Shown here one piece after another: positions 7,308-10,127 of a stretch of 64,000 nucleotides of DNA. Below the pieces are notes generated by a model. The model searched no databases, was not told where the DNA came from, and worked only from the letters and a program-made list of their open reading frames with translations. The stretch spans positions 68,217 through 132,216 of the forward strand of contig SVAS01000001.1 of NCBI GenBank assembly GCA_015059285.1. The letters run 5' to 3'. This DNA comes from Bacillota bacterium. GTDB taxonomy: Bacteria > Bacillota_I > Bacilli_A > RF39 > UBA660. The first letter of the stretch is position 1; every line of letters starts with the position of its first letter. A program made the translations under genes and the position numbers.

Positions 7308-10127
7308 ATGTTTAATCATAGTGAAATAGAAAAAAAATGGAGAGAATATTGGGAAGAACACAATACTTTTAAAACTGATGTATGGGACTTTTCTAAACCA
7401 AAGTTTTATGCATTAGATATGTTTCCATATCCATCAGGAGTAGGTTTACATGCAGGACATCCTGAAGGATATACCGCAACTGATATTGTGTCTCGTATGA
7501 AAAGAATGCAAGGATATAATGTACTTCACCCAATGGGATTTGACTCTTTTGGTCTTCCTGCTGAACAATATGCAATAAGCACTGGAAATCATCCAGATGG
7601 ATTTACTAACGATAATATTAAAACTTTTAAAGAACAATTAAAATTATTGGGTTTATCTTATGATTGGGATAAAGAAGTATCAACTTGTGATCCAAATTAT
7701 TATAAATGGACACAATGGATATTTAAAAGGTTATATGAAGATGGACTTGCTAAATACGTTGATATGCCTGTAAACTGGTGTGAAGAATTAGGAACTGTAC
7801 TTGCTAATGATGAAATCATTGATGGTAAAAGTGAAAGAGGAGGATATCCTGTTGTTCGTAAAAATATGAAACAATGGGTTATAGATATACCTAAATATGC
7901 TGAAAAACTATTAGATGGTTTAAATGAAATTGATTGGCCAGAATCAACTAAAGAAATGCAAAGAAATTGGATTGGTAAAAGTATAGGAGCACATGTTAAA
8001 TTTAAAGTAAAAGATACTGATAAATCATTTACAGTATTTACTACTAGATGTGATACTTTATTTGGTGCTACTTACTGTGTTTTATCACCAGAACATGAAC
8101 TTGTAGATTTAATTACAACTAGTGATAAAAAAGAAGAAGTAGATGCTTATAAAAAGGTATGTGCTACTAAATCAGAAATGGAAAGAACAGAGCTCAATAA
8201 AGAAAAAACAGGTGTATTTATAGGAGCATATGCTATTAATCCTGTTAATAATAAAGAAATTCCTATTTGGATTTCAGATTACGTTCTAGCAACCTATGGA
8301 ACAGGAGCTATTATGGCAGTTCCTGCTCATGATGAAAGAGACTATGAATTTGCTAAAAAATTTAATATTGATATTATTCAAGTATTAGAAGAAGTTACAG
8401 GAACTCCTCATGAAAACGAATCTACAAAAAATAGTATCGTAGCTATTTTATATGATGAAAAAAACAATAATTATTTAACAATCAATTGGGGTAATTTAGG
8501 TGGTAGATTATTTATTGGGGGAAGCATTAAAGAAGGTGAAACACCTTTAGAATGCGCTATTAGAGAAGTAAAAGAAGAAACAGGCTATGTAAATATAGAA
8601 TTATTACAAGAATTACCTAAAATTAATCATCATTATTATGCTTATAATAAAGATAAATATTTTAATATTGAAAGTACTGGTTTTGTTTTCAAATTAGTTA
8701 ATGATGAAAAAATAGAACAAAACTTAGATGAAGATGAAAAATTCACTGTAGAATGGGTTTCAGAAGAAACAGTAAATAAAGAAATTACTGAACAATTACA
8801 TAAAAAGACTTATGAATATTATTTAAATAATGGTGCTATGTGTGGAGATGGTATTCACATTAATTCTGACTTTTTAAATGGTTTAAATAAAGAAGATGCT
8901 ATAAATAAAATGACTGAGTGGCTAGAAGAAAATAAGTTTGGTAATAAACAAATAAATTATCGTTTAAGGGAATGGATTTTTGCCCGTCAAAGATATTGGG
9001 GAGAACCAATACCAGTAGTTCATTTTGAAGATGGAACAAGTGCATCCATAGACGATTCTGAATTACCTTTAGTACTTCCAGAATTAGAAGATTATAGTCC
9101 AAGTAAAAGTGGAGCATCTCCACTTGAAAAAGCAACTGATTGGGTAAATGTAGAAATAGATGGTAAAAAAGCAAAAAGAGAAACTAGTACAATGCCTGGT
9201 TCAGCGGGTTCTAGTTGGTATTTCTTAAGATATATTGACCCACATAATGAAAATGCAATAGCAGATAAAAAACTATTAGAACATTGGTTACCAGTAGATC
9301 TTTATGTAGGTGGACCAGAACATGCAGTAGGTCATTTACTTTATTCTAGAATGTGGAATAACTATTTATATGATATAGGAGTTGTTCCAGTAAAAGAACC
9401 ATTTAAAAAATTAGTACATCAAGGAATGATATTAGGTGAAAATGGAATTAAAATGGGTAAAAGATATCCAGAATTTGCTGTTAACCCTAATGACATTGTA
9501 AAAGAATATGGTGCTGATACATTAAGGCTTTATGAAATGTTTATGGGACCTTTAGAAGCTGATAAACCATGGAGTAAAAAAGGTGTTGAAGGAGCTAGAA
9601 GATTTTTGGATCGTATATATAGACTATATACAGAAGAAAATAAAATTCAAGAAACACAAAATACAAATTTAGAAAAAATCTACAATCAAACAGTTAAAAA
9701 AGTAACAGAAGATTATGAAACATTAAACTTTAATACAGCAATTAGTAGTATGATGATATTCGTAAATGCAGTTTATAAAGAAGACATATTCCCAAAAGAA
9801 TATGCAGAAGGATTTGTTAAATTATTAAATCCAGTAGCCCCTTACTTAGCTGAAGAATTATGGAACTTATTAGGTCATAATGATACAATTGCATACGAAT
9901 CTTGGCCTACTTATGATGAAACTAAAATTGTAGATGAAACTTATACTATGATTGTACAAGTTAATGGTAAAGTACGTGGAAAAATAGAAGTTTCTACTGA
10001 TACAACAAATGACCAAATGGAAGAACTTGCTAAAACAAATGAAAATGTTATTAAAAATATTGAGGGAAAAGAAATTGTTAAAGTAATTGTTGTTCCTAAA
10101 AAATTAGTTAATATTGTAGTAAAATAA
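7308..10127 (+). CDS. leuS: leucyl-tRNA synthetase with inserted Nudix hydrolase domain
   Basis: Aligns end to end with B. subtilis LeuRS ([12 protein letters not shown] motif, KMGKR KMSKS motif), but about 145 extra residues lie between FEFAKKF and [14 protein letters not shown] and contain the Nudix box [23 protein letters not shown]. Confidence 0.95.

Follow-up and report, generated by a model that had tools for sequence, protein, structure and literature searches.

Aminoacyl-tRNA synthetases (aaRSs) are among the best-studied enzymes and the editing site in the CP1 domain of leucyl-tRNA synthetase (LeuRS) is a drug target, which makes a second enzyme at this place unexpected. The bacterial LeuRSs (TIGR00396; Escherichia coli, 4AQ7 and 4ARC; Thermus thermophilus, 2BYT and 1OBC) share with the protein analyzed here the same motifs, the anticodon-binding and C-terminal domains and the control by a leucine T-box, but none of those solved or described is known to have the Nudix domain, 151 residues long, which takes the place of a 10-residue CP1 loop in it. 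This protein is the product of the gene leuS (7308..10127, on the plus strand like all the features given below) in a 64,000-nucleotide stretch of Bacillota DNA (assembly GCA_015059285.1, contig SVAS01000001.1, positions 68,217 to 132,216 of the forward strand), which we call the window. A preliminary description of the window had reported a Nudix hydrolase domain inside LeuRS, and this is confirmed: the 939-amino-acid (aa) open reading frame (ORF) and the cited flanking and box segments are present exactly as described.

The other side of the comparison is the Nudix enzymes. It is established that aaRSs synthesize diadenosine tetraphosphate (Ap4A) and other dinucleoside polyphosphates (ApnN), that the asymmetric Ap4A hydrolases are Nudix enzymes such as RppH/NudH and MutT1, and that Gram-positive bacteria otherwise use YqeK for Ap4A (PMC7705103). 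RppH/NudH and the Ap4A hydrolases (E. coli RppH, Aquifex aq_158 with the structure 3I7U, T. thermophilus Ndx1) are the best named neighbors of the insert by sequence and by fold and have the fold, the complete box, a similar size and the aromatic residues at +16/17 in common with it; in contrast to them, it falls far under the equivalog cutoffs, is acidic and not basic, possesses a K448 and a W483 of its own and is embedded in CP1 or attached to it.

The Nudix insert and its host synthetase

The 939-aa protein is encoded by a single uninterrupted ORF and scores 1041.1 bits with the bacterial LeuRS model (TIGR00396, leuS_bact; cutoff 548.4), which places it inside that family. Pfam recognizes in it tRNA-synt_1, the LeuRS editing domain PF13603 and Anticodon_1 and, in addition, a NUDIX domain (PF00293) at residues 377-503 (8436..8816). 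The match reaches 57.5 bits when the whole protein is searched and 62 bits with the insert by itself (gathering cutoff 21.1; E-value about 1e-15 to 1e-17); it is far beyond chance and assigns the insert to the Nudix superfamily, so that the profile search proposed in the preliminary description came out strongly in its favor. The PF13603 match is interrupted around profile position 152, which puts the Nudix domain inside the CP1 editing domain.

The boundaries of the insert were set by DNA comparison with the closest insert-free relative among the species genomes, a metagenome-assembled genome (MAG) labelled 'Tenericutes' (locus L050). The two loci are collinear with 82-84% DNA identity over the GH31 gene, the leader, a small ORF and both halves of leuS, and positions 8392-8843 of the window (452 nt) occupy the place of 29 nt in the relative. 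Where the latter reads IIQVIE-GGDISHEAYI-GDGLHINS, the window reads IIQVLE-EVTG...GAMC-GDGIHINS. The insert thus comprises 151 residues (E362-C512, 8391..8843) which take the place of the 10-residue CP1 loop GGDISHEAYI, with a net gain of 141 residues; the earlier estimate (some 145 additional residues, where the Bacillus subtilis-type enzyme has about 9) was right. The interval first proposed, 8395-8838, lies within the true one and was only essentially right, since 8395 is one base out of frame and gives 13 stops, the in-frame start being 8394 or 8391. The location needs a correction: instead of standing at the junction of CP1 and the catalytic core, the insert begins 17 residues past the editing-site Asp345, in the C-terminal part of CP1, at a loop which differs in length among bacteria. 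Its GC content is 0.254 against 0.301 (0.099 against 0.115 at third codon positions), a difference which says nothing for or against a foreign origin. Inspection of the codon alignment by eye showed no repeats at the junctions; no search aimed at repeats was made.

The Nudix box (23 residues, 8520..8588) reads G405-x5-E411-x7-R419 E420 V K E423 E424 T G426 Y427 and fits GX5EX7REUXEEXGU at every position, catalytic Glu included, as the preliminary description had stated when it called it a textbook box. There is no second Nudix box in any of the six frames across the 64-kb window. Two further sites are conserved: the motif YYAYNK (8634..8651), which places two aromatic residues at +16/+17 from the box and includes the invariant K448, and W483 (8754-8756), invariant in an alignment of diverse inserts; K448 and W483 are specific to this family. 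The insert is a genuine Nudix domain, its catalytic box complete, placed in frame in an otherwise canonical LeuRS.

The host enzyme presents all the expected motifs. The HIGH motif of the synthetic site is HAGH (7449..7460), its H48 and H51 being invariant in alignments A1 and A2, and the KMSKS-equivalent loop is KMGKR (9450..9464), with its second lysine, K718, invariant; both class I signatures are therefore present, the KMGKR variant being common to the insert-free relatives. A coupling of the unusual KMGKRYPEF loop to the Nudix insert was ruled out for the same reason, the loop being a lineage trait. The N-terminal part of CP1 (residues 221-361, 7968..8390) matches profile positions 1-152 of PF13603, and the domain resumes after the insert at 8844..8951, according to Pfam and the codon alignment. 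Its editing site is complete: the T-rich region TTRCDT (8040-8057; T245, T246, R247, D249 and T250 invariant in the alignments), the GTG loop GTGAIM (8298-8315, checked by translation) and the conserved Asp in AHDERD (8325-8342; D342 and the editing-site D345 invariant) are all kept, the three motifs being invariant in the alignments. These motifs are equally intact in insert-bearing and insert-free enzymes. Because the synthetic and editing sites are both preserved, the host LeuRS should still charge and proofread tRNA-Leu.

A protein 99% identical to that of the window is found on six contigs, two of which were inspected and come from different samples with the same neighbor genes. A chimeric join, which the preliminary description had feared along with a frameshift or assembly artefact, is excluded by this finding and by the collinearity with the insert-free locus. 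The fold is also well predicted. AlphaFold2 gave for the full protein a pLDDT (predicted local distance difference test) of 89.3 and a pTM (predicted template modelling score) of 0.77, with 80-94 pLDDT for the blocks of the insert, and for the insert alone 95.3 and 0.89, with the strands and helices in the Nudix order; the alignments used for these predictions (A2, A3) were built from database proteins only (those with P-numbers below). The predicted structure displays the alpha/beta/alpha sandwich with the box on a loop-helix-loop, and the models point to an independently folding Nudix domain. When the full model was compared with the PDB by Foldseek, the best matches were the E. coli and T. 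thermophilus LeuRSs (template modelling score, TM, 0.76-0.82), and no solved LeuRS with such a domain was among the fold matches.

Selection acts on the insert. Among 25-29 homologues, with inserts that share only 22-30% identity with that of the window, G405, E420, E423, E424, G426, Y427, K448 and W483 are invariant and R419 nearly so. The ratio of nonsynonymous to synonymous substitution rates (dN/dS) in the window's own lineage is 0.06-0.12 for the insert and 0.05-0.17 for the core; in ten other pairs it is 0.03-0.15 for nine inserts and 0.32 for the tenth, with 0.05-0.12 for the cores. Purifying selection on the insert is as strong as on the rest of the gene. A decaying pseudo-domain is ruled out by these ratios together with the invariant catalytic residues. 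The synonymous rate itself is higher in the insert than in the core (0.175 vs 0.067, 0.89 vs 0.64 and 0.83 vs 0.64 in comparisons with L083, L085 and L086), with a similar dN/dS, which may reflect a weaker codon constraint or a separate history of the insert. Taken together, the window very probably encodes a real, selected and catalytically competent Nudix module belonging to a clade associated with CP1.

Distribution, stand-alone genes and exchange of the module

The preliminary description had asked which taxa share the insertion, and homologue searches showed it to be widespread, patchy and exchanged among lineages, occurring in stand-alone genes too. PF00293 was present in 120 of the 120 best LeuRS homologues (75-100% identical; ENA, JGI, NCBI and Logan). 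In a scan of one genome per species (GTDB species genomes), a Nudix domain occupies exactly the same site in about 38 species of Bacilli, Clostridia, Saccharibacteria and Paceibacterota, and Pfam NUDIX was confirmed in eight of these loci (42-94 bits). They fall into gut MAGs labelled 'Bacilli' from rabbit, goat, mouse and human (Hadza), which are 53-76% identical over the region (L001-L027), and genomes labelled Clostridia, Bacillota, Saccharibacteria and Paceibacterota, with 31-41% identity (L028-L037 and L039).

The insert alone was also compared exhaustively with 1.84 billion cluster representatives, which gave 512 matches at E <= 1e-3. Among the 150 best representatives, 89 have LeuRS-like (class Ia) flanks, and clearly free-standing Nudix proteins of about 160 aa first appear only at about 30% identity. 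A word-indexed search with the insert gave 14 mostly fragmentary matches and missed the full-length proteins, and a profile search with an alignment of diverse LeuRS-Nudix proteins retrieved mainly the window's clade, with P0282-85, P0302, P0307 and P0316 as diverse additions. As far as the matches indicate, this Nudix clade is mostly coupled physically to class-Ia CP1 domains. The box is degenerate in only one representative (P0145).

Several architectural variants exist. Two tandem Nudix domains occupy the CP1 loop in a Saccharibacteria MAG (L028, 1119 aa) and in P0283 (1102 aa). A second insertion site lies where the catalytic core gives way to CP1, on the N-terminal edge of the latter, and the proteins using it possess three NUDIX domains (P0142, P0171) or two (P0150, P0156) in total. 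P0222 (1345 aa) is an IleRS-like protein with the DUF5915 C-terminus which combines Nudix with a histidine phosphatase (His_Phos_1), and P0181 (1318 aa), not a synthetase, consists of GNAT, NUDIX, a second GNAT (Acetyltransf_3) and an M17 aminopeptidase domain.

Other members of the family are separate genes. They encode proteins of 276-346 aa which correspond to a CP1 domain, or to its remnant, with Nudix in the same loop, and which end where CP1 ends (P0136, P0139, P0144, P0149, P0233, P0274, L038 at 1944-2813 and L040 at 5776-6648). This stand-alone family spans Clostridia, Bacilli and other lineages, and the CP1 editing residues are often lost. P0144 comes from a closed genome of 0.87 Mb (CP066684.1; L090, 5001-5864), in which it lies away from leuS. 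The most telling case is a rabbit-gut MAG (L081; GCA_947625535.1, CANQOR010000004.1) with the order GH31, T-box (5437-5618), 118-aa ORF, CP1-Nudix (6001-6831, 276 aa) and an insert-free leuS (6848-9268, 806 aa): this is the synteny of the window with the module split off. The Nudix part of this stand-alone protein is 66% identical to the window's insert; TTRPD is kept in it and YHNHKD replaces AHDERD, while in the LeuRS of the same locus the T-rich motif deviates (TTCIET). The CP1 remnants of L038 and L040 are devoid of the T-rich, GTG and Asp residues; their dN/dS is nevertheless 0.20, and that of Nudix 0.10. Since selection is maintained on the CP1 remnant and on Nudix in separate genes, the two act as a single functional unit, whether or not they are fused to LeuRS. 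The L040 gene adjoins an ORF which reads, by eye only, as a Ham1/RdgB-like house-cleaning NTPase. To our knowledge, no free-standing homologue of a class Ia CP1 has been described before.

The module has been gained, lost and swapped. In a neighbor-joining tree computed on the LeuRS core after removal of the insert columns, distance-based and without branch support, insert-bearing and insert-free enzymes interleave at shallow depth. The core of the window's enzyme is 89% identical to that of the insert-free L050 and 90% and 84% identical to those of the insert-bearing P0004 and P0005; its insert is 72-75% identical to inserts of enzymes with cores only 54-56% identical. The cores of L029 and P0302 share 90% identity and their inserts 32%, so that different Nudix types occupy one site. 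The pair formed by the window and L050 alone implies a gain or a loss between close relatives and, as the insert-free state has its own loop sequence, both events need allelic replacement and not a simple deletion. It is from these changes of presence and of insert type at about 90% LeuRS identity, and from an insert similarity which does not run parallel to the LeuRS body, that gain, loss and swapping are deduced.

Exchange seems to extend to CP1. Among L001-L080, the LeuRSs are of two body types, only one of which has a Zn-binding Cys motif; they are 46-51% identical in their N- and C-terminal parts and share CP1 at 78%, the CP1 identity between types being no lower than within a type. This suggests that CP1 itself was exchanged between lineages and that the gene is a mosaic. 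The similarity of the inserts follows CP1 (Mantel r 0.49) more than the body (r 0.29), in analyses which, like the tree, are based on distances. The module, sometimes with CP1, was presumably exchanged by homologous recombination through the highly conserved flanks.

No description of this architecture was found in searches of the literature on LeuRS or aaRSs combined with Nudix, in which the apparent matches were irrelevant, and the Foldseek search of the PDB gave only ordinary LeuRSs, in agreement with the earlier remark that it was not recognized from any described LeuRS. The CP1-embedded Nudix, the multi-copy and second-site forms, the stand-alone CP1-Nudix genes and the cassette-like exchange are new to the literature and to the PDB. 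Sequences with this architecture already sit unremarked in public databases, NCBI annotating such fused proteins as plain 'leucine--tRNA ligase'. In view of the wide, patchy and partly stand-alone occurrence, the question becomes why Nudix is coupled to CP1 specifically.

The leuS locus and its control

Upstream of leuS lies a T-box leader (6751..6933; Rfam RF00230, 125.5 bits for a gathering score of 93) with the leucine specifier CUU followed by a purine (AUGAA-CUU-G in the alignment). Between the leader and leuS, a 113-aa predicted membrane protein (6965..7306) matches no Pfam family. It has syntenic counterparts of 113 and 112 aa in L083 and L084 and of 115 aa in L086, and the 118-aa ORF of the split locus L081 is 35% identical to it. 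The T-box controls an operon composed of this small ORF and leuS, and the membrane protein is apparently co-regulated with leuS by the charging of tRNA-Leu. The leucine T-box and the conserved locus identify a tRNA-Leu-responsive gene: this leuS has the housekeeping role in an uncultured gut Bacillota of low GC content, from a lineage of MAGs labelled Bacilli or 'Tenericutes'. Both are indirect pointers to a leucine-specific role of the enzyme, whose activity itself is predicted.

Three further T-box leaders were seen in the window, at 22990-23187, 36256-36444 and 49332-49511. The one at 36256 precedes a 1033-aa IleRS (36494-39595) of the type with a C-terminal DUF5915 domain, and the one at 22990 is followed by two ORFs (347 and 799 aa) which are, by their size, candidates for PheRS alpha and beta. 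Directly 3' of leuS, the segment 10128-12776 has no DNA match in L050, the match resuming beyond it with RNase HII, and constitutes a second variable spot at the locus; it encodes a protein of 358 aa (10231-11307), whose N-terminus bears a prepilin-type methylation motif, and an FAD-dependent one of 462 aa (11389-12777). Further on, a 173-aa ORF (13630-14151) has an ortholog in L083 annotated as a metallo-beta-lactamase fold, with a weak match to Anti-Pycsar Apyc1.

Candidate roles and comparison with known systems

The Nudix module may be an active enzyme which hydrolyzes, in a Mg2+-dependent manner, a compound of the nucleoside-diphosphate-X type at LeuRS or close to it. Its likeliest substrates would be adenylylated polyphosphates (Ap4A, Ap3A, other ApnN, p4A), which would arise at the synthetic site when ATP or another nucleotide attacks Leu-AMP, so that the synthetase would carry its own asymmetric ApnN hydrolase. 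We regard this mechanism as a whole as falling a little short of an even chance; that ApnN-type nucleotides are the physiological substrate of a local hydrolase is put forward more tentatively still. Among the readings of the module's function, hydrolysis of ApnN or a related nucleotide nevertheless ranks first, ahead of an action on tRNA or RNA ends, with immunity and a non-catalytic or regulatory role together in last place.

The preliminary description had already suggested Ap4A/ApnA hydrolysis, and the neighbors of the insert are compatible with it. The best NCBIfam match is RppH (PRK00714 models), a sub-threshold one with 33.9 bits for a cutoff of 118; RppH is also the best match of the nearest free-standing Nudix relatives, which themselves obtain only 27-42 bits. 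The match to the MutT 8-oxo-dGTPase (TIGR00586) is likewise below threshold (29.3 vs 97.9 bits). By fold or sequence, Ap4A/ApnA-type neighbors include 3I7U, 1F3Y, 1VC8 and 9CXX, and the PDB neighbors comprise the Aquifex Ap4A hydrolase (TM 0.72/0.79), RppH bound to Ap4A, the Ap6A hydrolase Ndx1 and the diadenosine polyphosphatase Rv2985/MutT1 (TM about 0.73). An aromatic residue located some 16-18 positions after the box reportedly marks ApnA hydrolases (Dunn et al. 1999, J Biol Chem); Y443 and Y444 stand at +16/+17, and of 25 diverse inserts 24 have an aromatic residue there, which is a lead given by a weak marker. The inserts are uniformly acidic (mean net charge -10.5, range -2 to -17, pI about 5.1), and this fits a small Mg-nucleotide substrate better than RNA. 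The pairing of Nudix with His_Phos_1 in P0222, which is the MutT1 architecture, and the ORF beside the stand-alone gene of L040, read by eye as Ham1/RdgB-like, were counted as further leads to ApnN.

Other members of the superfamily were considered. The markers of ADP-ribose, NADH and CoA pyrophosphatases are a Pro at +15/16, the SQPWPFPxS array and an upstream LLTxR...FPGG; the insert has H442 and Y443 at +15/+16, no SQPWPFP array and FIGG in place of FPGG, and so does not show the markers of these subfamilies. The clearing of aminoacyl-adenylate, another proposal of the preliminary description, is chemically unlikely because this compound is an acyl-phosphate and not a nucleoside diphosphate-X.

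Several observations limit the case for ApnN hydrolysis. The insert reaches no curated equivalog cutoff of the characterized Nudix subfamilies; the top structural neighbor, 2AZW, has no assigned function, and the remaining sequence, profile and fold neighbors are mixed, with the decapping proteins Dcp2, AvrM14 and g5R and the ligand-sensing NrtR and AraR among them. Moreover, Nudix is tied specifically to CP1, including those CP1 domains which no longer have their catalytic residues, and the distribution of the module is accessory-like; both argue against a purely small-molecule clean-up role.

This is where an action on an RNA end has its strength, and we consider it the best of the alternatives, though an unlikely one. 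The Nudix domain would act as a repair or decapping module on a pyrophosphate-containing group of the CP1-held tRNA-Leu or of another RNA, the targets considered being a 5'-triphosphate, an Np4- or NAD-type cap, a 5'-adenylylated end and a toxSAS-type 3'-pyrophosphate on the CCA end. CP1 is the domain which binds the tRNA 3' end, and Nudix is persistently tied to it: the coupling is kept in stand-alone proteins with lost editing residues, in which CP1 remains under purifying selection, and CP1-Nudix lies within the T-box leuS operon of L081. RppH and the three decapping proteins are among the closest named families, the patchy and exchanged distribution is typical of conflict-related functions, and the histidine phosphatase of P0222 could strip the phosphate left by a Nudix cut. 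On the part of the toxins, toxSAS enzymes pyrophosphorylate tRNA CCA ends, and one member is FaRel2 from Coprobacillus sp. D7 (PMC10565793); as to the Nudix enzymes, their degradation of alarmones bearing 3'-pyrophosphates is documented (PMC9293644). However, no precedent is known for a Nudix enzyme acting on tRNA ends, and the acidity of every insert is unlike an expected RNA-binding surface. In addition, mature tRNA carries a 5'-monophosphate, and a Nudix cut of the 3'-pyrophosphate would leave a blocking 3'-phosphate.

A more specific version, to which we attach less probability again, makes of CP1-Nudix a horizontally exchanged module, not recognized before, for surveillance or repair of the tRNA end: CP1, whether active or degenerate, would dock the acceptor end of tRNA-Leu and Nudix would remove a pyrophosphate-linked adduct (a toxin-made 3'-pyrophosphate, a nucleotide cap or an adenylyl group). 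If true, its carriers would resist toxins or phage effectors directed at tRNA, and the module's cassette-like gain, loss and swapping would be accounted for, as would the multi-copy forms and the presence of separate CP1-Nudix genes in leuS operons.

Accessory immunity or detoxification is improbable. Here, the module would protect LeuRS, and sometimes IleRS, from a natural nucleotide-type inhibitor or toxin of the gut community and would be kept only under such pressure, in parallel with the GNAT domains which acetylate aminoacyl-nucleotide antibiotics. It would account for the differences of presence and insert type between LeuRS genes about 90% identical, and it has a counterpart in the IleRSs with an embedded N-acetyltransferase domain (NCBIfam NF040702). 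M17 peptidases and GNATs of the RimL/MccE type process and detoxify microcin-C-like compounds, and P0181, a relative of this Nudix clade, combines its Nudix with two GNAT domains and an M17 domain of the leucyl-aminopeptidase type; yet this link is made by one protein, with E = 5e-11. The chemistry is unfavorable too: microcin C, the toxic moiety of agrocin 84 and the sulfamoyl-adenosines contain phosphoramidate or sulfamoyl links and not the diphosphate that a Nudix enzyme cleaves. Finally, no toxin or biosynthetic genes were seen near leuS within the window.

We give just as little weight to a non-catalytic passenger, tolerated in a permissive loop and spread by recombination, or to a structural or regulatory module, perhaps a nucleotide-binding modulator of editing or aminoacylation acting without turnover. 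The host loop does vary in length among bacteria, from 10 residues in the insert-free relative to the longer loops of the E. coli and T. thermophilus LeuRSs, many close relatives do well without the insert, and ligand-sensing Nudix domains exist, such as NrtR and AraR. Yet the catalytic Glu and Arg residues are invariant in very divergent inserts, whereas the boxes of sensor Nudix domains are usually degenerate, as here in P0145 only; the insert, with a dN/dS of about 0.1, is as constrained as the essential core, and selection also maintains the module where it forms a separate gene. Last, that the fusion is an artefact of assembly, binning or frameshift, or an intein-like self-splicing element, is so improbable that it can be set aside: the window is metagenome-type sequence and inteins do occur at conserved sites of essential genes, but the ORF is continuous, the replacement is clean and in frame, collinearity with L050 and the six contigs support the join, homologues number in the hundreds (ENA, JGI, NCBI, Logan), and the junctions LE/EVTG and GAMC/GDG show neither an N-terminal Cys/Ser nor a C-terminal His-Asn followed by Cys/Ser/Thr, no Hint/intein or homing-endonuclease domain being matched by Pfam in the LeuRS protein.

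The occurrence of up to three copies, in at least four bacterial lineages including the genome-reduced Candidate Phyla Radiation, and of separate genes under selection points to Nudix chemistry being linked functionally, and in a specific way, to the editing domain of LeuRS. Should the substrate be Ap4A/ApnN, as in the reading we prefer, this would be the first synthetase carrying its own alarmone-clearing activity and would provide a handle on the role of aaRS-made dinucleoside polyphosphates; should it be a modified tRNA or RNA end, a new tRNA quality control or anti-toxin defense would come to light. Since one syntenic locus occurs naturally without the insert, with it fused and with it split off, these three states constitute a ready experimental series.

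These proteins can be set beside several known systems. The Enterococcus faecalis MutT/Nudix protein 2AZW, from structural genomics, is free-standing, 21-22% identical to the insert and without LeuRS context. Mycobacterial MutT1/Rv2985, a hydrolase of 8-oxo-(d)GTP and diadenosine polyphosphates, resembles the insert in its Nudix fold; it is not fused to a synthetase, and the window's protein lacks its phosphatase domain. The IleRSs of NF040702 likewise combine a class-Ia synthetase with an unrelated domain which modifies small molecules, but this domain is GNAT and not Nudix and the host is another one, the window's LeuRS obtaining 65.7 bits for a cutoff of 1999 through its synthetase part only. 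Like the insert, inteins are found sporadically among close relatives, at a single conserved position in an essential gene, and their phylogeny does not follow that of the host gene; unlike them, the insert has no splicing motifs, Hint or homing-endonuclease domain and, as modelled, would stay folded in the mature protein. The trans-editing factors AlaX, YbaK/ProX and ThrRS-ed are, as the stand-alone CP1-Nudix proteins, editing-domain homologues encoded by separate genes, and in L081 such a gene shares the operon of the synthetase; the CP1-Nudix proteins differ from these factors by the partial or complete loss of the editing residues and by the presence of Nudix, and would be the first free-standing homologues of CP1. 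Measured against curated thresholds, the host is a bona fide bacterial LeuRS and the insert a bona fide member of the Nudix superfamily, lying outside its characterized subfamilies.

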